40,079 nucleotides of DNA from Gemmatimonadota bacterium. GTDB taxonomy: Bacteria; Gemmatimonadota; Gemmatimonadetes; Gemmatimonadales; JACORV01. Every line of letters begins with the position of its first letter. Within the stretch, counting starts at the first letter, position 1. Both the position numbers and the translations under genes were made by a program. Below are positions 8,481-29,702 of this stretch, piece by piece. Location: contig JACQVG010000018.1 in assembly GCA_016209905.1 (NCBI GenBank), positions 1-40,079 of the forward strand, written 5' to 3'. The notes under the pieces are model-generated. The model worked only from the letters and a program-made list of their open reading frames with translations, made no database searches and had not been told where the DNA came from.

Positions 8481-9710
8481 ATGACTCGAACCGCCGAGTA
8501 CCTCGACGAAGTCGAGCGGTGCAGTGCGCGCAACTACAAGCCGCTTCCCATCGTGCTGGAGCGAGGCGAGGCGGCCTGGGTCTGGGATGTGGAGGGCAAG
8601 AAGTACCTCGACTGCCTGAGCGCGTACTCCGCGCTCAACCAGGGCCACAGGCACCCGGCCATCGTGAGGGCGGCGAAGGAACAGCTCGACCGGCTCACGC
8701 TGACGTCCCGCGCCTTCCACAACGACCGGATGGGGCCGTTCCTGCATCAGCTCTGCGAGCTGGCCGGTTTCGCGAAGGCGCTCCCTATGAACACGGGCGC
8801 CGAGGCGGTCGAGACGGCAATGAAGGCGGTCCGCAAGTGGGGCTACCGCGTGAAGGGCGTGCCGGAGGGCAAGGCGGAGATCATCGGGTGCGAGAACAAC
8901 TTTCACGGGCGCACGATCTCGATCATCTCCTGGTCCACGGAGCCGCAGTACCGCGATGGCTTCGGGCCGCTGACGCCGGGCTTCACTCTCGTTCCCTACG
9001 GCGATGCCGCGGCGCTCGAGCGCGCGATCACGCCGAACACGGTCGCGTTCATCGTCGAGCCGATCCAGGGGGAGGGCGGCGTGATCGTGCCCCCCGCCGG
9101 CTACCTCAAGCGGGCGCGGGAGATCTGCACCAGGCACGGCATCCTGTTCGTGGCGGACGAGATCCAGACGGGTCTCGGCCGGACCGGAAAGATGTTCGCG
9201 TGCGAGTGGGAGGGCGTCCGCCCCGACGCGATGATCCTCGGCAAGGCGCTCTCCGGCGGCCTGTATCCGGTCTCGGCATTCCTGGCCGACGAGGCGGTCA
9301 TGGGCGTCTTCACCCCGGGGGACCACGGCTCGACGTTCGGGGGCAATCCGCTGGGCGCGGCGATCGGTTGTGCGGCGCTGCGGGTGTTGGTGGAGGAGAA
9401 ACTCGCCGACCGGGCGCTGGAGCTGGGTGGGTGGTTCCTGGCCGAACTCCGGAAGATCGGTTCGCCGCACGTTGCCGACGTCCGCGGGCTGGGCTTCCTG
9501 ATCGGGGTCGAGATCAGGAAGGCGAGCGGTGCGGCGCGCCCCTACTGCGAGGCGTTGATGGAGCGAGGCATCCTGGCCAAGGAGACGCACGACCAGGTCG
9601 TGCGCTTCGCGCCGCCGCTCGTGATCGCGAAGGCCGATCTCGAGTGGGCTCTCCCCCGCATCGCCGAGGTGCTGGCGATGAGTTTCGAGCCGGCGATGGC
9701 GGCGCCCTAG
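8481..9710 (+). CDS. rocD: Ornithine--oxo-acid transaminase
   Basis: YLDCLSAYSALNQGHRHP, LTLTSRAF, PMNTGAEAVET, EPIQGEGG, DEIQTGLGRTG, LGKALSGG, HGSTFGGNPL. Confidence 0.95.
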   Translation: MTRTAEYLDEVERCSARNYKPLPIVLERGEAAWVWDVEGKKYLDCLSAYSALNQGHRHPAIVRAAKEQLDRLTLTSRAFHNDRMGPFLHQLCELAGFAKALPMNTGAEAVETAMKAVRKWGYRVKGVPEGKAEIIGCENNFHGRTISIISWSTEPQYRDGFGPLTPGFTLVPYGDAAALERAITPNTVAFIVEPIQGEGGVIVPPAGYLKRAREICTRHGILFVADEIQTGLGRTGKMFACEWEGVRPDAMILGKALSGGLYPVSAFLADEAVMGVFTPGDHGSTFGGNPLGAAIGCAALRVLVEEKLADRALELGGWFLAELRKIGSPHVADVRGLGFLIGVEIRKASGAARPYCEALMERGILAKETHDQVVRFAPPLVIAKADLEWALPRIAEVLAMSFEPAMAAP

Positions 9711-9717
9711 ACCGGCC

Positions 9718-9771
9718 TGAAGGAATCTTCACCCTCGATTCACGGTTGTCCCCCACCGCCCCGTCTACGTT
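9718..9771 (+). promoter_or_regulatory. nos operon promoter with TGAA-N6-TTCAC-N6-TTCAC box and -10 TACGTT
   Basis: Same architecture and spacing as 18205-18258 and 18944-18997. Confidence 0.65.
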
Positions 9772-9800
9772 CCGCCGCATCTTATCCGAAGGATCGAGCA

Positions 9801-10217
9801 GTGTCGGCAGTTCGATTCGTGCCAGCGCTCCTCGCCGTGCTCGCGCTCGCCGCGTGCAACCGGGCGGACTCGGCGGACCGGGAAGAGCGCGAGGAGCGGG
9901 CTGAAGAGAACCCACTGATCGAGATGCAGCCGGAGGCGGCGCGGCGCGACCCCCGGACGCAGATCTTCCTCGCCAGGGGCTGCGCGCAGTGCCACGCGAT
10001 CAGCCGCCTGCAGGTGGTCTCGCCGACCAACGTCGGCCCCGACCTGAGCACCGCGGCCGCCGACGTGCCGCGGCGGTTTGGCGTACAGCTCGACCAATTC
10101 CTACGCAGCCCGACGGGCACCATGCAGATCGTGCTCTCGGGTCAGATCCAGCTCTCGGTGCAGGAGCGCGATTCGATCGTCGCCCTGCTCCGCCGGCTCG
10201 ACACCAACAACCCGTGA
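9801..10217 (+). CDS. Monoheme c-type cytochrome lipoprotein
   Basis: Lipobox LALAA-C; heme motif CAQCH; GPDL; distal Met candidate in PTGTM. Confidence 0.88.
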   Translation: MSAVRFVPALLAVLALAACNRADSADREEREERAEENPLIEMQPEAARRDPRTQIFLARGCAQCHAISRLQVVSPTNVGPDLSTAAADVPRRFGVQLDQFLRSPTGTMQIVLSGQIQLSVQERDSIVALLRRLDTNNP

Positions 10218-10243
10218 CCCGCTCACGGGGGAGGCAGCCGACC

Positions 10244-12157
10244 ATGCAGCGCCCCGCAGTGCTTCTCGTCACCGGACTCGTCGCTGTGGCGGGCTGCGGT
10301 CCCAGGGGAACCCAGGGCCGCAACGCCCAAATCGCCGACGTGGCCACGGCTTCGCGAGCCACGTACGTCGCGCCCGGCCGGCAGGACGAGTTCTACCTGT
10401 TCTATTCCGGCGGCCACTCCGGCCAGGTCTACGTCGCCGGCGTGCCCTCGATGCGGCACATCTCGACCATCCCCGTCTTCGCACCCTACCCGGCGACCGG
10501 GTACGGCTTCGACGAAGACAGCCGCCGCATGCTGGGCGAGTACAGCTGGGGCGATGTGCACCATCCCGCCCCGAGCCGCACCAACGGCGACTACGACGGC
10601 CGGTGGCTGTTCGTGAACGACAACGCGAACAATCGCGTCGCCCGCATCGACCTCCGGGATTTCAAGACCAAGCAGATCCTGGGTCCGATCCCGAACTCGA
10701 GCGGGAACCATGGCTCCTCGTTCACGACCGCGAACACCGAGTACGCGCTGGTCGCCTCGCGGTTCTCGATTCCGATCCCGAAGGGCACGGTGGCGCCGCT
10801 CGCGCGCTACGCCACCGACTATCGCGGTATCGTGAGCGGGATCAAGATCGACAGCGCGACCGGCACCATGTCGCTCGACTGGCAGATCGAGACCCCGCCC
10901 ATGAACTGGGATCTCGCGTCCACCGGCAGAGAGCTCTCCGGCGACTGGGCCGTGTGGAGCTGCTACAACGCCGAGCGCGCCACCGGTCGCCTCGAGGTGA
11001 CCGCCTCACGGCGCGACCGCGACTACCTCGCCTTCATCAACTGGCGTCGGGCGGCCGAAGCGGCCCGCGCGGGCCGCTTTCGCATGGTGGGCGGCGCCCG
11101 GGTGCTGAACCCCCGTGACGTGCCGGGCCTGATGTACCTGATTCCGCTGGCCAAGAGCCCGCACGGCGCGGATTTCTCGCCCGACGGCCGGTACGTGGTG
11201 GGCAGCGGCAAGCTCGCGCCCTTCGCCACCGTGTACGACTTCCAGAGGTTCCTCGACGCGGTGCAGCGGAACGACACGGTCGGCAACGAGGACGGGATCC
11301 CCGTCCTGCGCTACGAGTCGGTGCGCGTCGCCGAGGTGCCGGTGGGCCTCGGTCCCCTCCACACGCAGTTCGACGCGGACGGGTACGCCTATACGTCGCT
11401 GTTTGTCGAGTCGGCGATCGCCAAGTGGCGCCTCGGCCCGTTCGACGGCAACGACTCGGCGCTCGTCGTGGCCAAGATCCCGGTGCACTACAACGTCGGG
11501 CACCTCGTCGTCGCGCACGGCGACGCCCGCCATCCGGTGGGACGCTACCTCGTCTCGATGAACAAGCTGTCCCACGGGCGGCATCTCTCCGTCGGCCCGT
11601 CGCAGCCGGAGTCGAGCCAGCTCATCGACATCACCGGCAGCGGGATGACGATGCTGTACGAGGCGTACACGGAGCCCGAGCCGCACTACGCCATCCTGAT
11701 GCAGGCCGGCCTGCTGCGGCCGATCGAGGTCTACCCCCGCGAGGAGAACCGGAACCCCAACGCTATCTGGTCGCCGCAGGAGGCCCGGGTCACCCGCACG
11801 GGGAACCGCGTCGACGTGCGGATGTTCGCGGTGCGCACCTATTTCGCGCCCGACAACATCGAGGTGAACCAGGGCGACTCGGTCCGCATCTACGTCACCA
11901 ACACCGAGCAGAGCACGGACGAGCTGCACGGGTTCGGGCTCGCCGAGTACAACATCAACATCGTGATGGACCCGGGCGAGACGAAGACCGTGGCGTTCCG
12001 CGCCACCAAGCCCGGCGTGTTCCCGTTCTACTGCACGAACTTCTGCTCCGCGATGCATCAGGAGATGCAGGGCTACCTCCTGGTCCGGCCCCGGGGCGGC
12101 ACCACGGTCGCGCAGGCGCAGCGCCGTCGCAGCACGCCGCGGCATCGCGCCGACTGA
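10244..12157 (+). CDS. nosZ: Nitrous-oxide reductase, clade II (Sec-type)
   Basis: SGGHSGQ; CuZ histidines DVHH, GNHG, SPHG, GPLH, VGH, EPH; CuA LHGF...FYCTNFCSAMHQEM; no twin-arginine motif, lipobox VAG-C. ATG 10244 follows GGAGG. Confidence 0.97.
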   Translation: MQRPAVLLVTGLVAVAGCGPRGTQGRNAQIADVATASRATYVAPGRQDEFYLFYSGGHSGQVYVAGVPSMRHISTIPVFAPYPATGYGFDEDSRRMLGEYSWGDVHHPAPSRTNGDYDGRWLFVNDNANNRVARIDLRDFKTKQILGPIPNSSGNHGSSFTTANTEYALVASRFSIPIPKGTVAPLARYATDYRGIVSGIKIDSATGTMSLDWQIETPPMNWDLASTGRELSGDWAVWSCYNAERATGRLEVTASRRDRDYLAFINWRRAAEAARAGRFRMVGGARVLNPRDVPGLMYLIPLAKSPHGADFSPDGRYVVGSGKLAPFATVYDFQRFLDAVQRNDTVGNEDGIPVLRYESVRVAEVPVGLGPLHTQFDADGYAYTSLFVESAIAKWRLGPFDGNDSALVVAKIPVHYNVGHLVVAHGDARHPVGRYLVSMNKLSHGRHLSVGPSQPESSQLIDITGSGMTMLYEAYTEPEPHYAILMQAGLLRPIEVYPREENRNPNAIWSPQEARVTRTGNRVDVRMFAVRTYFAPDNIEVNQGDSVRIYVTNTEQSTDELHGFGLAEYNINIVMDPGETKTVAFRATKPGVFPFYCTNFCSAMHQEMQGYLLVRPRGGTTVAQAQRRRSTPRHRAD

Positions 12158-12218
12158 CACCCGAATGGAGCGCGGGGAGCGGCCCGGGGGCCGTTCCCCC
12201 CGCCCCGCGGTGAAGACC

Positions 12219-12869
12219 ATGGCTCTACCCGCATCGCTCCAAGGTCCCGGTCGCATCGCCCTCTGGCTCGACGGCACGCTGAACAAGCCTGCCCGCATCG
12301 CGATAGTGCTCGCAAGCCTGCTTCTCCTCGTCTCGTTCGCCCTCCCCATGTGGCGCATCACGATGTTCGCCACGCAGTTTCCGGACGGGCTGGAGATGGC
12401 GATCTACCCGCAGCGGATTGCGGGCGGCAACGGCGGCCGGGACCTGAGCGAGATCAACACCCTCAACCACTACATCGGGATGAGGACCATCCAAGCCCGG
12501 GACTTCGCCGAGATGAGGTGGATTCCGTTCGCCCTCGGCGTCTTCGTGCTCCTGGCGGCGCGCGCGGCGGTGTTCGGCAAGGTGGGCAACGCCCTCGACC
12601 TGCTGGTGCTTTTCACCTACTTCGGCCTCTTCTCGCTCGGCTCGTTCTACTACCGGCTGTACAGCTACGGTCACCAGCTCGACGCCGAGGCCCCCATGAC
12701 GGTGGCGCCGTTCACGCCGCCGCTGATCGGGCACCACCGGCTCGCCAACTTCGATGTCTACAGCTTCCCCGGCCTCGGCAGCGGGCCGTTCCTCCTCTTC
12801 GGCGCCGTCCTCGCGGCGGTCCTGGTGGCGGACTACCGGCTGAAGCGGAGGAACCGGGTGGTGGCATGA
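12219..12869 (+). CDS. nosB: NosB-type membrane protein of clade II nos clusters
   Basis: P.WRI...A.QFPDGL, EINTLNHYIGM, YSYGHQLD, PFTPPLIG...LANF...SFPG.G; directly after nosZ. Confidence 0.85.
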   Translation: MALPASLQGPGRIALWLDGTLNKPARIAIVLASLLLLVSFALPMWRITMFATQFPDGLEMAIYPQRIAGGNGGRDLSEINTLNHYIGMRTIQARDFAEMRWIPFALGVFVLLAARAAVFGKVGNALDLLVLFTYFGLFSLGSFYYRLYSYGHQLDAEAPMTVAPFTPPLIGHHRLANFDVYSFPGLGSGPFLLFGAVLAAVLVADYRLKRRNRVVA

Positions 12870-14206
12870 CGCTGCTCGCGGCGCTCCTCGCCCTCGCGGC
12901 CGACACGGTCCGCGTGACGGCCGGCGACGCGGCCGCGCTCCGGGCCGCCCTCGACTCGGCGCCCGGCGGCAGCGTGGTCGCCGTCGGCCCCGGACGCTAC
13001 GACGGGCCGTTCATCGTGACCCGATCCCTGACCATCCTCGGCGAAGGGCGACCCACGCTGGGGGGGCGGAGGCAGGGGACGATCGTGCGGATCACCGCGC
13101 CCGACGTCACCCTGCGCGGCTTCCGGCTCGAGGAGGGAGGCCCCGACACCGATCGCGACGACGCCGGCGTGCTGGTGGAGGCCGTCCGCGCCCGCCTCGA
13201 AGACCTCGAAATCCGGGACGTGCACCACGGCGTGTATCTCAAGCAGGCGCATCACGCCGTCATCCGCGGGGTGACGATCCGTGGGCGCGCGGCGCTCGGG
13301 CCCAATCAACGCGGCGACGGGATCCACTTCTACTTCTCCACCCACGTCTTCGCCGAAGGGAACGACATCGCGGACGTGCGGGACGGGATGTACTTCTCGT
13401 ACAGCGACACGACGGTCGTTCGCGGGAACCGGGTCACGCGCTCCCGCTACGGTCTCCACTACATGTTCTCGCACGCGAACCGGTTCGAGGACAACCGCTT
13501 CACCGCCAGCGCGGCAGGAACCTCGATCATGAACTCGCGAGACGTCCTCGTGCGCGGCAACCTCTTCGCGCACAACCGCGGCGTCGAGTCGTTCGGCCTC
13601 CTGCAGCAGACGACCGAACGCGTCACGCTGGAGGAGAACGTGTTCCTCGACAACGGGGTCGGCCTCTTCTTCGACGGCGCCGTGGACGGCGTCGTGCGCG
13701 GCAACCTGGTGGCAGGGAATTTCGTCGGCCTCGAGATCTACCAGAGCGCCGAGCGGAACCGCGTGTGGGACAACGCGATCGTCGGGAACAGCTACCCGGC
13801 CACCGGGGCCGGCCGGGGCAACGTCTTCTGCGTGAACGGGCGCGGCAACTACTGGGACGACGGCCGGCGGTACGACCTCGACGGCGACGGAGTGAGCGAC
13901 GTGCCGTTCGAGACGGCCTCGCCGCTGACGGAGCTGTCGCGGGGCAGACCTGCGCTGCGACTCTTCCTGGCGAGTCCGGCCGCCGCCGCGCTGGGCTGGG
14001 CCGAGCGAACCTTCCCGGTCTTCGACATCGCGTCCGTCACCGACAGCTGCCCCCTCGCCGCGCCGCCCCGTGATTGGCACGCGGCCGGCGCGTGGGAGGC
14101 GCCGCGCGGCGGGAACGGCCCCACCTTGGTAACCGCCGGGGCGACTCTGCTGCTCGGCCTCGCCCTGCTGCTCCGGGGCGCACCGAGGGGGAGGGGGCGC
14201 GCATGA
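12866..14206 (+). CDS. nosD: NosD copper-binding beta-helix maturation protein
   Basis: RGDGIH, VRDGMYF, SRYGLHYMFS, GNYWDD...YDLDGDGVSDVP; ATGA overlap with nosB. Confidence 0.93.
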   Translation: MTLLAALLALAADTVRVTAGDAAALRAALDSAPGGSVVAVGPGRYDGPFIVTRSLTILGEGRPTLGGRRQGTIVRITAPDVTLRGFRLEEGGPDTDRDDAGVLVEAVRARLEDLEIRDVHHGVYLKQAHHAVIRGVTIRGRAALGPNQRGDGIHFYFSTHVFAEGNDIADVRDGMYFSYSDTTVVRGNRVTRSRYGLHYMFSHANRFEDNRFTASAAGTSIMNSRDVLVRGNLFAHNRGVESFGLLQQTTERVTLEENVFLDNGVGLFFDGAVDGVVRGNLVAGNFVGLEIYQSAERNRVWDNAIVGNSYPATGAGRGNVFCVNGRGNYWDDGRRYDLDGDGVSDVPFETASPLTELSRGRPALRLFLASPAAAALGWAERTFPVFDIASVTDSCPLAAPPRDWHAAGAWEAPRGGNGPTLVTAGATLLLGLALLLRGAPRGRGRA

Positions 14207-14922
14207 TCTGCGTCGAGCGGCTGACCAAGCGCTTCGGCTCCCGGGAGGCCCTGCGCGACGTCTCCGTCTCGGTCGCTCCCGGCGAAGTGGTGGCCGTCGT
14301 CGGAGCGAACGGCGCCGGGAAGTCCACGCTGCTCAAAGCCGTGGTCGGGATCGTCCGGCCCAGCGGCGGACGCATCACGGTGGGCGGCCACGACGTCGAA
14401 GCCGAGGCCGTGGCGGCGCGCCGTCTCGTGGGGTACGTGCCCCAGCGGCTCGCCTTCCCCGACCACGTCACGCCCCACGAGCTGTGTCGCCTGGTCGGCA
14501 CGCTCCGGGGCGTGGGGGCATCCGACGCCGACGCCGGCGCGACCCTGGACGCCGTGGCGCTCGGCGAGCGCGCGCGCTCGGGGGTGCGGGACCTCTCCGG
14601 AGGCCAGCGGCAGCGGCTGTCCCTCGCGCTCGCCCTGGTCGGCGCGCCGCGCGCCCTCGTTTTCGACGAGCCGTCCATCTCACTCGACGCCGACGGGGCG
14701 GAGGTCGTTCGCGCGGCGATCCTCTCCGCCAAGACCCGAGGTGCGGCGATCCTCTTCGCGACCCATCACCAGCACGAGGTAGCGGCGCTGGCAGACCGTG
14801 TCGTGGTGCTCAGCCACGGGCAGGCGGTGGCCCGGGCCGGGGCCGCCCAGATTCAGGGGCCGGGCAGTTTTGAAGCGTTCTATCGCGACGCGCTCCGCCG
14901 TGAGGTGTCCCGTGCGGCGTAG
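14203..14922 (+). CDS. nosF: ABC ATPase NosF
   Basis: GANGAGKST, LSGGQRQR, LVFDEP, H-loop; lies between nosD and the permease. Confidence 0.88.
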   Translation: MICVERLTKRFGSREALRDVSVSVAPGEVVAVVGANGAGKSTLLKAVVGIVRPSGGRITVGGHDVEAEAVAARRLVGYVPQRLAFPDHVTPHELCRLVGTLRGVGASDADAGATLDAVALGERARSGVRDLSGGQRQRLSLALALVGAPRALVFDEPSISLDADGAEVVRAAILSAKTRGAAILFATHHQHEVAALADRVVVLSHGQAVARAGAAQIQGPGSFEAFYRDALRREVSRAA

Positions 14923-14946
14923 CCGGCACCGCCCTGAGGAGCGGCC

Positions 14947-15825
14947 GTGACGACCGTCGCCGAGCCGGCGCCGCTCAGCTTCGCCCGGCCTAGGGCGATC
15001 CGGCCGCTCGGCCGCCAGCTGGCGGCGCTCGCCCGCTACGAGCTCGCCGTGGAGATGCGGGGCAGAATCCTGCCGGTCTTCGCCGTCGGCTTCGCGCTCG
15101 CGGCGCTGGCGGTCGCGCTCGTGGGTATGTCGGCGGGCGGCACGATCCTCGTGCAGGGATTCGGCCGGACGGCGGTCAGCCTGCTCCAACTCTCCCTCTG
15201 GGTCGTCCCGCTGGTCGGGCTGGCGGTGAGCGCTCTCGCCGCAGCCGACGGCTACGACATGGAGACGCTGGCCGCGCAGCCCATCGGCCGGGGCACCCTG
15301 GTCGTGGGCCGCGCGCTCGGGCGCTTCGTCGCGCTGGGCGCGGCGGTGGCGGTCGGTTACGGCGTGGCGGGCGTCGTGATCGCGGGGGCGGCCGGGACGG
15401 GCGACGCGCTGCGCTACCTCGGCCTGGTGGGCGTGGCGGTCGCGCTGGCGGCAGCGAGCACCAGCCTCGGCACGCTGGCGGGCGTCGCTGCGCGCACCCG
15501 CACGCGAGCGCTGGCGCTCGCCGTCGGACTGTGGTTCGTCCTCGCGCTGGGGTTCGACCTGGCGGCCATCGCCGCGCTCGGCGTTCTGCCGCGCGCCCAG
15601 CTGACCTGGTGCCTGTCGGGGCTCCTCCTCCTCGACCCGGTGGATACGGCGCGCGCCATCGGCGTGGGTCTCCTCGGTGCGGAGGCGATCGCCGGGCCGA
15701 TGGGCGCGGCGCTGCGGCGTGTCCTCGGTCCTTGGGGTCTCTTGGCGTTGTGGGTGGGGCTCGCGGCGTGGACGGCGCTGCCGCTCGCCCTCGCGGCCCG
15801 CCTCTTCGCGCGCCGTGACCTCTAG
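14947..15825 (+). CDS. nosY: ABC permease NosY
   Basis: Multi-TM protein; FGRTAVSLLQL...VPL, ETLAAQPIGR, LLLLDPVD..R. Confidence 0.85.
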   Translation: MTTVAEPAPLSFARPRAIRPLGRQLAALARYELAVEMRGRILPVFAVGFALAALAVALVGMSAGGTILVQGFGRTAVSLLQLSLWVVPLVGLAVSALAAADGYDMETLAAQPIGRGTLVVGRALGRFVALGAAVAVGYGVAGVVIAGAAGTGDALRYLGLVGVAVALAAASTSLGTLAGVAARTRTRALALAVGLWFVLALGFDLAAIAALGVLPRAQLTWCLSGLLLLDPVDTARAIGVGLLGAEAIAGPMGAALRRVLGPWGLLALWVGLAAWTALPLALAARLFARRDL

Positions 15826-15943
15826 GCCAGGGAGGCTTCGCTCGGCTTTGGCGCCCCCGTCGCGGGGAGCCGAGTATCGTGACTTGACGTCGCCGGGGGT
15901 GGAACGGGAATGGAGCGGGGCCCCGGGACAAGGAGTGGGCGCG

Positions 15944-16864
15944 ATGACGTGGAACCCCATCATCGTCGGCGTGGACGGCTCGCAGGAGTCGGTGCGGGCG
16001 GCGGTCATCGGATGCGCGGTGGCGAAAGCGGCCGGCACGGACTGCCAGCTCGTCCACGCGGTGCCCGACTACTGGGGGGCGACCTGGATGCCCGAAGTCG
16101 CGGGCGACCCGGCGGAGTTGAACGAAGCGTTGAGAGGCCACGCCCGCACGCTGCTGGTGAGCGCGCTGGAGGGAAGCGTGCCGAGCCGGCTGCTGCGCAA
16201 CCTCGACGTCCGCGTCGGCCGGGCGCCGATCGTGCTGGCTCACGTGGCGGCCGAGCGTGGTGCCGGGCTGGTGGTGCTGGGCGGCAAGCACCACAAGGGC
16301 CTGGGCCGGCTGGGCAGCAGCACGCTGCAGCACATGGTGCGCACCTCCGACGTCCCGCTGCTCGCCACGGACGGCACCTCGGGAACCGTCGAGCGCGTGC
16401 TCGTAGCTGTGGACCTCTCGTACGCCGCCAGGCCTGCCATCGAGGCCGGTGAGCGGTTCGCCAAGCTGTTCGACGCGCAGCTTCGAGTCATGCACGCCGT
16501 CGAGCCGGTCCCGGTGATCCCGGGCTTCCCGCTGGACATCGGCGACGACGACTGTTACCGCAGCGTCGAGCGGCTCCTTGAGATGACGGTGTGGCCGCTC
16601 GTCGAAGCGCCGGGAGCGGAGAAAGTCGTGCGGCGGGGGCGGGCGGCCGCGGTCATCGTCAGCGAGGTGACCCAGTGGCGGGCGGACCTCGTGATCGTGG
16701 GCTCGCACGGGAAAGGGTGGGTGGACCGGCTGCTGATCGGCAGCACGTCGGAGCGGCTGCTCCACCTCCTGCCTACGCTCACGCTCGTCATCCCGGTCGC
16801 CAGGCCGAGCGATGCCGGCCCTCTGCCGGCGGTCGCGCCGCCGCCGGCCGGCACGGCGAGGTAG
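15944..16864 (+). CDS. Tandem-domain universal stress protein
   Basis: IIVGVDGS, second domain VLVAVDLS, ADLVIVGSHG...LLIGSTSERLL; AGGAG ribosome-binding site. Confidence 0.92.
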   Translation: MTWNPIIVGVDGSQESVRAAVIGCAVAKAAGTDCQLVHAVPDYWGATWMPEVAGDPAELNEALRGHARTLLVSALEGSVPSRLLRNLDVRVGRAPIVLAHVAAERGAGLVVLGGKHHKGLGRLGSSTLQHMVRTSDVPLLATDGTSGTVERVLVAVDLSYAARPAIEAGERFAKLFDAQLRVMHAVEPVPVIPGFPLDIGDDDCYRSVERLLEMTVWPLVEAPGAEKVVRRGRAAAVIVSEVTQWRADLVIVGSHGKGWVDRLLIGSTSERLLHLLPTLTLVIPVARPSDAGPLPAVAPPPAGTAR

Positions 16865-16938
16865 CCGGACCGCCGCCCTAGACGTAGGTTTCGCGCGGAC
16901 CCCCGCGGACCCCCGCGGCCGCTCGCGCCGAGGACCGG

Positions 16939-18207
16939 TTGCCTTCCCACCGCACCGCCGGAGAGCCGCTGACCTCCGACCCCGACACCTTCCGCATCCG
17001 GGAACGGTTCGAGCGGCTGCTCGCAGCCGGGATCTCCATCTCCTCCGAGCGCTCCCTGGACCGCGTGCTCCAGCAGGTCGTGGACTCCGCGCGCGCGGTC
17101 GTCGAGGCGCGCTACGCCGCCCTTGGCATCCTGGGCGAGGACGGCGCCACGCTGGTGCGCTTCGCCGCGTCGGGCCTGAGCGAGGCCGAGCGGGAACGAA
17201 TCGGCGCCTGGCCGCGCGGCCGCGGGCTGCTCGGGGCGGTGATCCGGGATCGGAAGCCGCTGCGCATCGCGGAGATCGGCGCCCATCCGGAAGCCTACGG
17301 CTTCCCCGCCCACCATCCCGCCATGCGCTCGTTCCTCGGCGTCCCCGTCGTCGGGCGCACGGGACCGGTCGGGAACCTGTACATGGGCGACAAGATCGGG
17401 GCGCGCGAGTTCAGCGCGGAGGACGAGTCCATCGCCGTCCTCCTGGCGGCCCAAGCGGCGGTCGCGGTGGAGAACGCCCGACTCTACGACGAGACGGCCC
17501 AGCTGCTGGGCAGGGTGCAGGCGATGCAGCGCCAGCGCGATCAGTTCTTCGCCATGATCAACCATGAACTGCGCAACGCGCTGACCGGTGTGTACGGATG
17601 GGCCGAGCGGCTGCTCCGCTCCCATTCGGGAAGGGCGGCCGCCCGCGCGGCGCGGGAGGTCTACGAAGGAGCGGAGAGGGCGGTCACGCTGATGAACAAC
17701 CTGCTCGACCTGAGCCGCCTGGACGCCGGGAAGGTGCAGGCGGTGTGGCGCCAGGCCGCGCTCCGCGACGTCGTCGAGCGCGCCCGGGCTCTCGTCCAGC
17801 CGGCCGCGGATGCCAAGCGGATCGCGCTGGAGGAGGAGTTCCCGGAGCCCTCGCCCCGCTGCCGCACCGACACCATGCGCTTCGAGCAGATCCTGGTGAA
17901 CCTGTTGAGCAACGCCATCCGCCACAGCCCGTCCGGCGAGACGGTCGCCGTCAGGGTCGAGACCACGGCGGACGAGATCCTGGTGCACGTCATTGATCGC
18001 GGGCCCGGCATCCCGCTCGAAGCGCAGGGCAAGATCTTCGAGCCCTACATCCGCGTGGACCCGGAGTCCGGCCTGGGCTCGGGCCTGGGCCTGCCCGTCT
18101 CGCGCCGCCTGGCGGAGCTGCTGGGCGGCCGGCTGAGCGTGCACAGCGCGCTGGGCCGCGGCGCGACGTTCACGCTGGCGGTTCCGAGCGCTCCGCCCGG
18201 CGAATGA
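16939..18207 (+). CDS. Soluble GAF-domain sensor histidine kinase (DosS/DosT-like GAF with HisKA/HATPase)
   Basis: ARYAALGI...PRGRGLLG...HPEAYGFPAHHPAMRSFLGVP...GNLY; H-box HELRNAL; NLLSNA, DRGPGI, GSGLGL; no TM segment. Start uncertain. Confidence 0.9.
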   Translation: MPSHRTAGEPLTSDPDTFRIRERFERLLAAGISISSERSLDRVLQQVVDSARAVVEARYAALGILGEDGATLVRFAASGLSEAERERIGAWPRGRGLLGAVIRDRKPLRIAEIGAHPEAYGFPAHHPAMRSFLGVPVVGRTGPVGNLYMGDKIGAREFSAEDESIAVLLAAQAAVAVENARLYDETAQLLGRVQAMQRQRDQFFAMINHELRNALTGVYGWAERLLRSHSGRAAARAAREVYEGAERAVTLMNNLLDLSRLDAGKVQAVWRQAALRDVVERARALVQPAADAKRIALEEEFPEPSPRCRTDTMRFEQILVNLLSNAIRHSPSGETVAVRVETTADEILVHVIDRGPGIPLEAQGKIFEPYIRVDPESGLGSGLGLPVSRRLAELLGGRLSVHSALGRGATFTLAVPSAPPGE

Positions 18208-18258
18208 ACCTTTCTTCACGCCGGGTTTAGCGGCGATTCAGCCGTCGCGAGGTATGGT
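18205..18258 (+). promoter_or_regulatory. Response-regulator promoter with shared box, likely leaderless
   Basis: TGAA-N6-TTCAC-N6-TTTAG-N6-TTCAG-N11-TATGGT; ATG 7 nt after the -10, no Shine-Dalgarno. Confidence 0.65.
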
Positions 18259-18264
18259 GCCCGA

Positions 18265-18936
18265 ATGAAGATCCTCGTCGTCGAAGACGATCGCAAAGTC
18301 GCCGGGTTCATCGAGCAGGGCCTCCGTGAGGAGGGCTACTCCGTGGACGTCGCCCCCGACGGCGACGAGGCGACGATGCTCGCCCACGTGTACGATTACG
18401 ACGTGATCGTTCTCGACGTGATGCTGCCGAAGAAAAGCGGACTGCACGTTGCGGCGGAGCTTCGGCGCGAGGGCCGGGGGACGCCGGTCCTCATGCTGAC
18501 CGCGCGGGACGCCACGGAGGACATCGTCCGCGGACTCGACGCCGGTGCCGACGACTACCTCACCAAGCCGTTCAAGTTCGATGAGCTGCTCGCGCGGGTG
18601 CGCGCCCTCGTGCGCCGCGGCGGCGCGACCCGGACGGAGCTGTTGACGTACGGGCCGATCGAGCTCGACCGGCTGAAGCACAAGGTCCGCGTCGGCGGGA
18701 GGGGGCTGGAGCTGTCTCCCAAGGAGTTTCACCTGCTGGAGCACTTCCTCCTGCGCCCGGAGGAGGTGGTGCGTCGCACCGAGCTGTTGGAGAAGGTGTG
18801 GGACATGCACTTCGACCCCGAGAGCAACGTCGTGGACGTGCACGTCGGGAATCTGCGGCGCAAGCTTCGGCAGGCCGCCCAGATGAGCCTGATCCACACC
18901 GTGCGCGGCGTCGGCTTCCGCCTCCAGAAACCCTAG
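18265..18936 (+). CDS. OmpR/PhoB-family response regulator (CusR/CopR-like)
   Basis: ILVVEDD, LDVMLP, LTARD, GADDYLTKPF, VWDMHFDPESNVVDVHV, IHTVRGVGF. Confidence 0.95.
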   Translation: MKILVVEDDRKVAGFIEQGLREEGYSVDVAPDGDEATMLAHVYDYDVIVLDVMLPKKSGLHVAAELRREGRGTPVLMLTARDATEDIVRGLDAGADDYLTKPFKFDELLARVRALVRRGGATRTELLTYGPIELDRLKHKVRVGGRGLELSPKEFHLLEHFLLRPEEVVRRTELLEKVWDMHFDPESNVVDVHVGNLRRKLRQAAQMSLIHTVRGVGFRLQKP

Positions 18937-18943
18937 GCCTCGA

Positions 18944-18997
18944 TGATGGGATCTTCACGCAACTTTCACGCTGCCTTCATCCGGCGCGGGCTAGGCT
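18944..18997 (+). promoter_or_regulatory. Promoter with shared box pointing into an ORF-poor structured region
   Basis: TGAT-N6-TTCAC-N6-TTCAC-N6-TTCAT-N11-TAGGCT. Confidence 0.65.
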
Positions 18998-19003
18998 CGC
19001 TGT

Positions 19004-19260
19004 GACCACCCGAATCGGTGGTCGGTGCGGGATCGCCCCTGAGGAGGGGCCGGCGCTCAAAACGCCGCCGACGGATCGGTTCGCTCGGAGTCACCGGCCG
19101 CACGTTCACTGGCTCGCGCCGGTACGAGAACACGAAACCCGGCGACAAACAGGCACTCGAGGAGCGGACGCCATCGGGTCAGGCACGACCCGACCAAAGT
19201 GATCGGTCGGAAGAAATGTCCTCCAGCCCCCGCGCTCCCCCGGAGAACGGGGGCTGATCT
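19004..19260 (+). ncRNA. Putative novel structured small RNA
   Basis: Predicted start coincides with the first base of hairpin GACCACC/GGTGGTC; a chain of further hairpins ends in the 9-bp stem CAGCCCCCG/CGGGGGCTG. Confidence 0.5.
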
Positions 19261-19271
19261 CTTCCAGCCTC

Positions 19272-20384
19272 CTAGTATCTCAGCCCCGTCGCGTCCGCGA
19301 ACTGCTTCAGGATGGCTTCCTGCTCGGCCGAGAGCTTGGTGGGAACCTCCAGGCTGACCTCCACCAACTGGTCGCCCCGCGCGCTGTTCTTCTCGATGCC
19401 CTGCCCCTTGATCCGGAACTTGCGACCGGGCTGGGTGCCGGCCGGAATCCGGAGCACGACGTGCTTGCCGTCGAGCGTGCGCACCTTGAGCTTCGTTCCG
19501 AGCATCGCCTGGGCGACGTTGATCGGCACCACGCAGTGCACGTCGAGTCCGTCGCGGTGGAAGAATCGGTCGGGCTCGACCTGGAAGGTGATCACGAGGT
19601 CGCCCGCTGCCGCGCCGCCCGTCCCGCGCAACCCCTGCTCCTTGAGGCGCAGCTTCGCGCCGGAATCGGCGCCGGCAGGCACCTCGATCATCAGGCGTTT
19701 CTCGAGCTTGACGTCGCCGACCCCGTGGCAGGTGCCGCACCGCCGTGACGCGACCCGGCCCTTGCCGCGGCAGGCGGGACACGGTCGCTTGACCGCGAAG
19801 CCTCCGTAACCGAACGAGACCTGCCCGCTCCCCTGGCACTCGGAGCAGGCCGTGAGCGTCGCGCCCGGCGCGGCCCCCGAGCCTCCGCAGGTCGGGCAGC
19901 CTTCCGTCACGGGCACAACCACCGGCACCTTGCCGCCGAGCGCCGCTACTCGGAACGGGAGGGTCACCACCGTCTCCACGCTCTCGCCCCGCTCGCGCCC
20001 GCCGCGCTTCGCCTCGCCGCCGAAGATGGAGGAGAACAGGTCGCCGATCCCGCCCAGACCAGCGTAATCCTTGAGGTCGAAGTCCTCGAACCGCGCACCC
20101 GCGCCGCCGCCGGCCGGCCGGCCCGGGGCGCTGCGCGCCCCGAAGCCGGTGAATCCGCCGTAGCGGCGGAGGCGGTCGTAGTGCTTGCGCTTTTCGTCGT
20201 CGGACAGGACGGCATACGCTTCGGTGATCTCCTTGAAGCGTTCGCCGGTCGTCCTGTCCCCCCCGCCGGGGCTGGCGTCGGGATGGTGCTTCTTCGCCAG
20301 TTTCCGGTAGGACCGCTTGATCTGGTCCTTCGTCGCCGATTCGGCGACGCCCAGTATCCGGTAGTAGTCCTTCTGCTGCGACAC
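19272..20384 (-). CDS. dnaJ: Chaperone DnaJ
   Basis: J domain with HPD, G/F-rich linker, four CxxCxGxG motifs, C-terminal domain. Confidence 0.95.
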   Translation of the reverse strand: MSQQKDYYRILGVAESATKDQIKRSYRKLAKKHHPDASPGGGDRTTGERFKEITEAYAVLSDDEKRKHYDRLRRYGGFTGFGARSAPGRPAGGGAGARFEDFDLKDYAGLGGIGDLFSSIFGGEAKRGGRERGESVETVVTLPFRVAALGGKVPVVVPVTEGCPTCGGSGAAPGATLTACSECQGSGQVSFGYGGFAVKRPCPACRGKGRVASRRCGTCHGVGDVKLEKRLMIEVPAGADSGAKLRLKEQGLRGTGGAAAGDLVITFQVEPDRFFHRDGLDVHCVVPINVAQAMLGTKLKVRTLDGKHVVLRIPAGTQPGRKFRIKGQGIEKNSARGDQLVEVSLEVPTKLSAEQEAILKQFADATGLRY

Positions 20385-25438: not shown

Positions 25439-26116
25439 TCAGCCCAGGGATTTCAGGACGAGCTTGCTGACCGCCTTGAGGGTCTCGAACACCCCGTCAC
25501 CGGTGATGGCGACGGCCTCGCGCGCCGGCGCCCGCTCCACCCACTCGCCGGTCGGCAACTGCCGGACGAGAAAGTCACCCGGGAAAACCGGGTCCGGCAC
25601 GGGCGTCTGCTTGTCGGAGTCGGCGACCGGCCAGCCCGGATTCAGCGCTGCCTGAAGCTCCTTGACCGGGGAGGCGTTCGGCAGATCCCGCTTGTTGAAC
25701 TGGACGACGAACGGGATCTTGGTGAGATCGTACCCGTACTCCCCCATGTTGTCGTACAGGTTCTGCATGGACTCGACGTTCGCCTCCAGCCGCTCGAGCT
25801 GGCTGTCGGCGACGAACACGACGCCGTCCACGCCCTTCAGGATGAGCTTGCGGCTCGCGTTGTAGTAAACCTGGCCCGGCACCGTGTAGAGGTGGAACCG
25901 GGTCTTGAAACCTCGCACCGTGCCAAGGTCCACCGGGAGGAAGTCGAAGAACAGCGTCCGCTCGGTCTCCGTGGCCAGCGAGATGAGCTTGCCGCGGGAC
26001 GCCGGGTTCACCCTGCCGAACACATGCTCCAGATTGGTGGTCTTGCCTCCGAGCCCGGGCCCGTAGTAAACCAGCTTGCAGTTGATCTCGCGCGAGGCGT
26101 AGTTGATCATCGACAT
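25439..26116 (-). CDS. mglA: MglA small GTPase
   Basis: [48 protein letters not shown]. Confidence 0.95.
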
Positions 26117-29629: not shown

Positions 29630-29702
29630 CTGGGGCGGGAGGATTCGAACCTCCAACTTCCCGGTTAACAGCCGGGCGGTCTGCCAGTTGACCTACACCC
29701 CA
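29630..29702 (-). tRNA. tRNA-Asn (GTT)
   Basis: TGGGGTG/CGCCCCA acceptor stem, anticodon arm CCCGG-CT GTT AA-CCGGG, T-arm GGTTCGAATCC; CCA not encoded. Confidence 0.96.

Follow-up and report, generated by a model that had tools for sequence, protein, structure and literature searches.

Clade II nosZ is commonly carried, in soil and water, by members of the phylum Gemmatimonadota. The window analysed here is a whole contig of 40,079 bp from a metagenome-assembled genome of the order Gemmatimonadales (2.17 Mb, 2,174,858 bp; 71% G+C; 89.5% complete). It carries a nosZ operon followed by genes for a sensor histidine kinase and an OmpR/PhoB-family response regulator, and this report concerns a promoter box which precedes the operon, the regulator gene and a structured RNA encoded behind the latter. 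On comparative evidence the link of the box and its three targets to the adjacent two-component system is well supported. A low-oxygen or nitric oxide (NO)-type regulon of the Gemmatimonadales, run by a two-component system consisting of a kinase with a haem GAF domain and an OmpR-type activator, is considered probable from the sequences.

In the excerpts consulted of a review of the field (PMC8139620), the nos control systems described are exclusively of the proteobacterial FNR/DNR/NNR/NosR/FixK2 type. The FNR, ANR-DNR/NNR, FixK2 and NosR systems resemble the present one in that nos transcription is tied to low oxygen or NO (excerpts of PMC8139620 and PMC5582078). They involve CRP/FNR-family proteins or the membrane protein NosR acting on clade I nos, whereas a predicted haem kinase and an OmpR-type regulator are encoded here. 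The small RNA DenR of Paracoccus denitrificans is likewise co-regulated with denitrification genes (excerpts of PMC8139620), but the RNA of this locus has no sequence or Rfam relationship to it, is about 260 nt long and highly structured, and occurs in few Gemmatimonadales genera.

The DosS/DosT-DosR (DevS/DevR) system of Mycobacterium tuberculosis is close in its sensor, since the GAF domain of the kinase is homologous to the haem-binding GAF-A and keeps the proximal His and distal Tyr. Furthermore, a universal stress protein (usp) gene lies in the operon, as Rv3134c does there, and the regulator appears to be autoregulated. The DosR regulon includes a small RNA, DrrS. The present system differs in having one GAF domain, a HisKA domain (PF00512) and a partner of the OmpR/PhoB rather than NarL/LuxR type, as well as an unrelated DNA box, nosZ and respiratory oxidase genes as targets, and a host in the Gemmatimonadota. 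Activators of the PhoB/PhoP type, with their pho boxes, share the winged-helix regulator, an 11-bp half-site period over the -35 region, a fixed -10 box and the lack of a -35 consensus. Here, however, the half-site is CTTCA and an inverted copy of it, TGAAG, opens the array; the regulator does not reach the cut-offs of the PhoB models in NCBIfam, and the kinase is unrelated to the sensor part of PhoR. The boxes of CusR, CopR and HprR contain an inverted repeat, and the NCBIfam subfamily nearest to the regulator (TIGR01387) is theirs. Their family cut-off is nevertheless not reached, no membrane kinase of the CusS type is present and the box sequence is another one.

Taken singly, the two-component system, the OmpR-type repeats, the DosT-like sensor and the small RNA are of known kinds. 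In open-access papers and preprints neither their combination nor its role in controlling clade II nosZ was found, nothing was found joining nosZ, DevS/DosS and Gemmatimonad*, and clade II nosZ together with a two-component regulator and promoter gave unrelated matches only. With the box defined and candidates for both the haem sensor and the regulator at hand, what turns on clade II nosZ here becomes directly testable, the conditions which induce nos could be predicted from genomes, and an undescribed RNA family would be added to the hypoxia response.

The shared promoter box and its conservation

The original prediction had aligned three promoters by TTCA repeats at 11-bp steps and a -10 box starting 38 bp after the first TTCA. 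Every position was read back correctly and the 38-bp spacing holds at all three sites. The repeats stand as described; the box itself was refined, its shared core being the inverted repeat TGAAG-N4-CTTCA, behind which further direct TTCA repeats stand at 11-bp steps, one at nos and two at the regulator gene and the RNA.

All three sites lie on the forward strand. The nos box (9718-9743) consists of the inverted repeat TGAAGGAATCTTCA (9718-9731) and the direct repeat TTCAC (9739-9743), with TGAA at 9718 and TTCAC at 9728 and 9739. Its -10 box, TACGTT (9766-9771), predicts a start near 9778 and a leader of about 23 nt with AAGGA before the GTG at 9801. In the regulator box (18205-18241), TGAAC-N4-CTTCA is followed by TTTAG and TTCAG (TGAA 18205, TTCAC 18215, TTTAG 18226, TTCAG 18237); the TGA at 18205 is also the stop codon of the kinase gene, and the -10 box TATGGT (18253-18258) ends 6 nt before the ATG at 18265. 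The RNA box (18944-18980) reads TGATG-N4-CTTCA, then TTCAC and TTCAT (TGAT 18944, TTCAC 18954 and 18965, TTCAT 18976). Its -10 box is TAGGCT (18992-18997), in the place of which TAGAAT, TAGATT, TACAAT or TAGCTT is found in relatives. A search of 9600-19400 revealed no promoter of the sigma-70 consensus type, in keeping with dependence on an activator.

Such arrays are rare. Allowing one mismatch, TTCAC-N6-TTCAC has three matches in the window against 0.46 expected, a number reached in 1 of 100 shuffles. The exact form occurs four times on both strands of the whole genome, twice at this locus and twice in coding-looking sequence, while three of the 12 genomic occurrences of TTCA-N7-TTCA and the single occurrence of the triple TTCA repeat (at 18954) belong to the locus. 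To avoid circularity, a 46-column matrix was trained only on the regulator promoters of nine relatives, with no site from the window's own genome (G000; other labels in G and L denote genomes and loci, respectively). Over 4.33 million positions it ranked the regulator site first (25.3) and the RNA site second (16.9). The nos site scored 4.1, with 47 positions above it, because the third repeat is absent. Since nos promoters have two direct repeats instead of three, a 16-column core matrix (TGAAG-N4-CTTCAc) was used for nos comparisons; it placed the nos site first in the genome (23.8), with a site on contig C1 next and the regulator and RNA sites after that. Matrices trained on relatives thus put the three sites at the top of the genome. 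The likeness of the three sites is real, and chance is excluded as its cause. The C1 site (25450-25463), a fourth strong box, is located in the divergent spacer between rpiA (reverse strand) and a gene for a GltD-like oxidoreductase with Fer4_20 and Pyr_redox_2 domains (forward strand).

Of 301 genomes of the order that were sampled, 121 have an orthologue of the regulator (at least 71% identity). Family f3 accounts for 108 (among 137 genomes), the family of the window for 8 besides the window genome (among 26) and family f2 for 4 (among 137). Of 40 orthologues outside the training set, 34 have the core box no more than 130 nt upstream of the start codon, in most cases beginning at exactly 60-61 nt from the ATG; in the remaining six, degenerate versions can be made out by eye. 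Motif and spacing, the loss of which had been named as a ground for abandoning the idea, are kept in most of these orthologous promoters. In a first set of orthologues the box was present in 9 of 14 with upstream sequence. The kinase gene abuts the regulator gene in four of the five without it, and in the fifth (L003) a spacer is present which lacks the box. Three of these five genomes (G007, G001, G020) have the box further upstream, and the gene just after it in G007 and G001 is a tandem usp gene according to Pfam.

The start predicted for the regulator transcript, 18265, coincides with the ATG, and the mRNA is predicted to be leaderless because the -10 box precedes the ATG by 6-8 nt. The position of the box suggests that the regulator is probably autoregulated. 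In G026, G300, G070 and G198 the box was observed 82-84 nt upstream of the regulator gene and is followed by a leader.

For the nos promoters, up to 1500 nt upstream of every nosZ match was scanned with the core matrix at a threshold score of 16 or more, which in G000 is reached at 11 of 4.34 million positions. Matches to nosZ came from 85 of the 301 genomes, 55 with and 30 without the regulator. Those offering less than 700 nt were dropped (G300, G064 and G288 with, G285 and G281 without the regulator), leaving 52 and 28. A box was found 5' of nosZ in 36 of the 52 regulator-positive and 2 of the 28 regulator-negative genomes, compared to 0/52 and 1/28 in reversed-sequence controls (Fisher p = 6e-8, for genomes that are related and hence not independent). 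One of the two negative genomes with a box (G280) has a truncated regulator orthologue, another counted as negative (G292) has an orthologue cut by a contig end, and one positive match (G284), located within the cytochrome gene, is probably spurious. The 38 sites align to the consensus aTGAAGAAnnCTTCAnnnnnnCTTCA, with A (71%)..TT columns at the -10 offset, and have the architecture seen at 9718-9771. In 18 of the 55 genomes with both, a single contig holds nosZ and the regulator gene at a distance of 2.6-6.5 kb (coordinates read by eye); in G036 and G032 the box precedes nos although nos and the regulator gene are on different contigs. The proposal that nos, the regulator gene and the RNA form one regulon tied to the adjacent two-component system is therefore supported by comparative genomics (36/52 against 2/28 nos promoters, 34/40 regulator promoters and, as described below, 9/9 RNA copies).

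Further elements were noticed in some nos promoters. A TTGAT-N4-ATCA-like or ATATATCAC..TGTTCATGATA AT-rich element stands beside the CTTCA box in G160 (L140), G230 (L145), G066 (L142), G182 (L154) and G212 (L123), and could be an FNR/DNR-type site or that of some other second regulator. A common palindromic ACGATAACTTCATGTTAATATCGT-like element about 190 nt before nosZ is shared by G086 (L130), G272 (L141) and G266 (L126), where the CTTCA box is below threshold.

Additional targets were sampled with the exact palindrome in four genomes, which gives a sample and not a census of the regulon. Behind the box were tandem usp genes (with the box at L041 9998, L053 2691 and L054 9417), and kinase-regulator genes followed by a gene of about 600 codons for an E1-E2 ATPase without an HMA domain. 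There were also genes for a two-domain multicopper oxidase with a Tat signal (NirK-like), the COX2/COX1 subunits of a haem-copper oxidase, an Rrf2 regulator, a sulfide:quinone-reductase-like flavoprotein, FeoB, a TonB-dependent receptor, a pyridoxal-phosphate enzyme (PALP) and pyruvate:ferredoxin oxidoreductase (POR). Two homologous secreted-looking proteins of 111-114 aa (L097 2609-2953 in G012; L102 2619-2954 in G020) matched no Pfam family. Judged by its predicted functions, this content has more in common with a response to hypoxia or anaerobiosis than with one to metals. In the window itself no box was found in the sequence upstream of usp (15941-16864); transcripts from the nos promoter probably extend through usp and the kinase gene, with the regulator on its own promoter.

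The sensor kinase, the regulator and the structured RNA

The kinase (16939-18207, forward strand) is soluble and composed, according to Pfam, of one GAF domain (residues 37-178), HisKA (199-264) and HATPase_c. In phmmer searches of PDB its GAF domain matched DosT (2vzw, E 1.9e-38) and DevS (2w3d, E 1.4e-33), and His126 (in HHPAMR) and Tyr148 (in GNLY) align with DosT His147 and Tyr169. In the excerpts consulted of PMC4082495 these are the proximal haem ligand and the distal residue, respectively. By sequence, then, a GAF-A with proximal His and distal Tyr is present, while the tandem GAF-A/GAF-B and the NarL-type partner of DosS/DosT are replaced by a single GAF and an OmpR-type neighbour. A sensor kinase that responds to oxygen or NO through haem is the probable switch of the regulon. 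Among 8000 scored candidates from metagenomes, at least 3874 proteins are homologous to the kinase at E 1e-30 or better, all bearing generic names. The DosT/DevS likeness was not part of the original prediction, and neither was the tandem usp gene between nosY and the kinase gene.

The regulator (18265-18936, forward strand) contains Response_reg (residues 3-113, 7.8e-31) and Trans_reg_C (residues 146-220, 3e-26) domains in Pfam and belongs to the OmpR/PhoB family. The likeness to CusR/CopR invoked at the outset proved weak. The best NCBIfam match is indeed the heavy-metal model TIGR01387 (CusR/CopR/SilR; E 2e-69), but its 233.5 bits are under the cut-off of 279.2; the CusR equivalog NF007346 gave 196.8 against 420 and the PhoB models 215.6 against 296.2 bits. 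Given a score under the TIGR01387 cut-off and near-equal scores for the RppA, PhoB and MtrA models, the protein is best regarded as an unclassified OmpR-family member.

A conserved structured non-coding RNA of about 260 nt (19004-19264, forward strand; covariance-model match E 7.8e-64) was recognized in the spacer after the regulator gene, which is 73-78% identical in four relatives from two other genera. The start predicted from the promoter alignment, 19004, is the exact start of the structure conserved in the covariance model. Five metagenome contigs also carry the RNA, one of them identical to the G007 copy, so that nine distinct copies are available, all nine with three TTCA-like repeats and a -10 box upstream. 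Sequence conservation begins 6-8 nt after the -10 box with a 5' hairpin and ends in a GC-rich hairpin. Alignment indels are of 1-2 nt, which excludes a conserved reading frame. The consensus fold, derived from these same nine related sequences, has 72 pairs with 96.1% of cells paired. Fifteen pairs are changed on both sides, compared to 7.0 +/- 1.6 after shuffling (0 of 500 reached 15) and 1-4 in slid controls, and the single-sequence fold has z = -2.54. At gathering level Rfam 15 contains no match for 18900-19300. The only match at E up to 1 was Twister-sister (16.3 bits against a gathering threshold of 34, E 0.86), which was dismissed as noise. Conservation and covariation together indicate that the spacer RNA is a structured non-coding RNA without an Rfam family.

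Searches of genome contigs for the RNA yielded six loci, of which four were true and two were chance coding matches (Devosia, Planctomycetia), and searches of metagenomes nine, five true and four false. Run over 27 genomes of the family, the covariance model returned only the five known carriers (with limited sensitivity, as 72 first-look candidates per genome were scored). In the genomes and metagenomes searched, the RNA is confined to few Gemmatimonadales genera. RNAduplex comparison with 1,107 crude translation-start regions gave energies dominated by GC content, the leaders of the regulon ranking 163-1102 of 1107 and thus not being set apart from the rest.

Besides the window, the RNA faces a convergent dnaJ gene in five of the eight relatives' copies searched (including L104, L107, L074 and L082). 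In the window dnaJ (19272-20384, reverse strand) is separated from the regulator gene by a spacer of 335 bp, and within 19226-19274 the terminal hairpin of the RNA ends about 8 nt from the dnaJ stop codon. This hairpin may be a shared bidirectional terminator, or else read-through may produce an antisense RNA to dnaJ.

Proposed regulation and alternative explanations

In the proposed mechanism the soluble kinase, through its one DosT/DevS-like haem GAF, would sense a diatomic gas (oxygen, NO or carbon monoxide) or redox state and phosphorylate the OmpR/PhoB-family regulator. The latter would bind the observed arrays of CTTCA half-sites, an inverted pair plus one or two 11-bp direct repeats, which cover the -35 region and leave the -10 box fixed at 38 bp from the first TTCA. 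Since the promoters lack a usable -35 box, it would most likely act as a class II activator in the manner of PhoB. Three transcripts would be driven in this genome: the operon of cytochrome c, nosZ and nosDFY (continuing into usp and the kinase gene), the regulator's own leaderless mRNA, which implies positive feedback, and the RNA of about 260 nt. The signal-transfer rules of DosS/DosT are not simply transferable because the architecture of the kinase differs. A wider proposal can be put forward tentatively, and is held a little less readily than its contrary. In it, a haem kinase rewired to an OmpR-type regulator would be the master switch of nitrous oxide reduction and micro-oxic respiration in much of the Gemmatimonadales, replacing the proteobacterial FNR/DNR/NosR logic, and the RNA of one subclade, acting post-transcriptionally or on a protein, would remodel metabolism when oxygen runs out.

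Several observations weigh against a regulon of this kind. Sixteen of the 52 nos promoters in regulator-positive genomes score below threshold, and in G010, which has the regulator and a nosZ 83% identical, no box was found within 1500 nt of the nos operon. The presence of regulator and motif both track phylogeny (f3 against f2), so that their association is partly confounded by kinship. Counts of the exact palindrome separate the groups only modestly: 16 regulator-positive genomes have 54 sites where reversed-pattern controls give 10, and 25 regulator-negative ones have 34 where the controls give 15. The kinase departs from DosS/DosT in its single GAF, in having HisKA instead of HisKA_3 and in its OmpR-type partner, and an inverted repeat of the form 5-N4-5 is also read by dimers of the CRP/FNR type.

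That last point leads to the explanation that the box is real but is read by another factor of the same phyletic spread, for example a CRP/FNR-type dimer, with the regulator gene a target and its product not the binder. The strongest element shared by the promoters does have FNR/DNR geometry, an additional box resembling TTGAT-N4-ATCA is present in the nos promoters of some relatives, and FNR-family factors regulate nos elsewhere (excerpts of PMC8139620). The bases of the box differ, however, from the FNR/DNR consensus TTGAT-N4-ATCAA, and the palindrome is always extended by TTCA repeats of 11-bp period, which are typical of winged-helix OmpR/PhoB regulators. Considering also that the box keeps a fixed distance from the regulator gene behind it in 34 of 40 orthologues, that it is rare at nos where the regulator is missing (2 of 28) and that no alternative candidate factor was identified in the locus, this explanation is unlikely. 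A copper-responsive circuit like CopR/CusR, in which the genes for the cuproenzymes NosZ, haem-copper oxidase and NirK-like oxidase and for a copper-type P-type ATPase are tied to copper supply and not to oxygen or NO, would account for TIGR01387 as the best match of the regulator and for the copper enzymes or P-type ATPase among the targets; in Paracoccus, nosZ expression is known to depend on copper (excerpts of PMC8139620). It is very unlikely, given that the TIGR01387 score is below cut-off and nearly equalled by other models, that the soluble kinase has a DosT-like haem GAF and no periplasmic CusS-like sensor, that the ATPase has no HMA domain in Pfam, and that usp, FeoB, POR and Rrf2 fit hypoxia better.

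The sign of the regulation and the origin of the likeness can also be read differently. The regulator might bind the boxes but repress, its phosphorylated or unphosphorylated form blocking polymerase until a signal frees the site; the sites overlap the spacer between -35 and -10, and in the three-repeat promoters the last repeat lies about 11 nt before the -10 box, where it could occlude polymerase. A missing -35 box is, on the other hand, a hallmark of activator-dependent promoters such as those with pho boxes. All of the promoters lack both a usable -35 box and a sigma-70 consensus, and no unaided promoter strong enough to need repressing is visible, all of which makes repression quite unlikely. 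Chance, or local duplication of a promoter cassette, was a legitimate concern, the motif having been set by eye on only three sites and AT-rich words being conspicuous in a genome so poor in AT. Independent training, genome-wide ranking and order-wide conservation at orthologous promoters rule it out and leave it a negligible probability.

Gene content of the locus

Gene assignments rest on open reading frames (ORFs) checked with Pfam. The order on the forward strand is aminotransferase, cytochrome-like gene, nosZ, a 234-aa ORF, nosD, nosF, nosY, usp, kinase and regulator. The aminotransferase gene (8481-9710) is the 5' neighbour of the nos promoter. The first gene of the nos operon (9801-10217, GTG start at 9801) encodes a small c-type cytochrome-like protein with a CAQCH motif which has no match in Pfam or NCBIfam. 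A homologue is also located 5' of nosZ in G010, where the nos operon (L042, G010:C184, 2400-3000) comes after an unrelated gene and a TTGACG-containing spacer, in a genome that has both the regulator and the RNA.

nosZ (10244-12157; nos_propeller 2.5e-32, Cupredoxin_1) encodes a protein whose N-terminus, MQRPAVLLVTGLVAVAGC, is a Sec/lipoprotein-type signal without a twin-arginine motif. It is followed by the 234-aa ORF (12165-12869), which is in the position of NosB and has no Pfam or NCBIfam match. The ORF listed for nosD (12350-14206; NosD 3.2e-35) probably starts too early, the NosD/beta-helix domains occupying residues 273-504. Next are genes for a NosF-like ABC ATPase (14074-14922; ABC_tran 1.1e-29), a NosY-like ABC-2 permease (14947-15825; ABC2_membrane_2 1.7e-17) and the tandem universal stress protein (15941-16864; Usp in two stretches, 1.4e-32). 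An ORF of 180 aa (15910-16452) was considered as nosL by its position and rejected as spurious, having no family match and overlapping the true usp frame; nosL was not recognised among the window ORFs tested, nor was a NosR domain detected by Pfam in ten window ORFs. The Sec-type signal, the gene for a CxxCH protein at the 5' side and the lack of a detectable nosR in those ten ORFs assign the cluster to clade II by traits and not by phylogeny. The sole Rfam match in the window at gathering threshold is a tRNA gene (29630-29702, reverse strand).

An ORF of about 600-650 aa was seen directly 3' of the regulator gene in many relatives (L041, L050, L051, L052, L053, L057 and L059). That of L041 (13106-14911) is an E1-E2 P-type ATPase by Pfam in which an HMA domain was not detected; the others were sized from crude gene calls only. 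From the window the P-type ATPase gene is absent, and the RNA comes after the regulator gene instead. One in-frame TGA was reported in the nosZ match of G007 (L032, G007:C13:3953-5947), and several other nosZ matches in the order contain single in-frame TAG or TGA codons.

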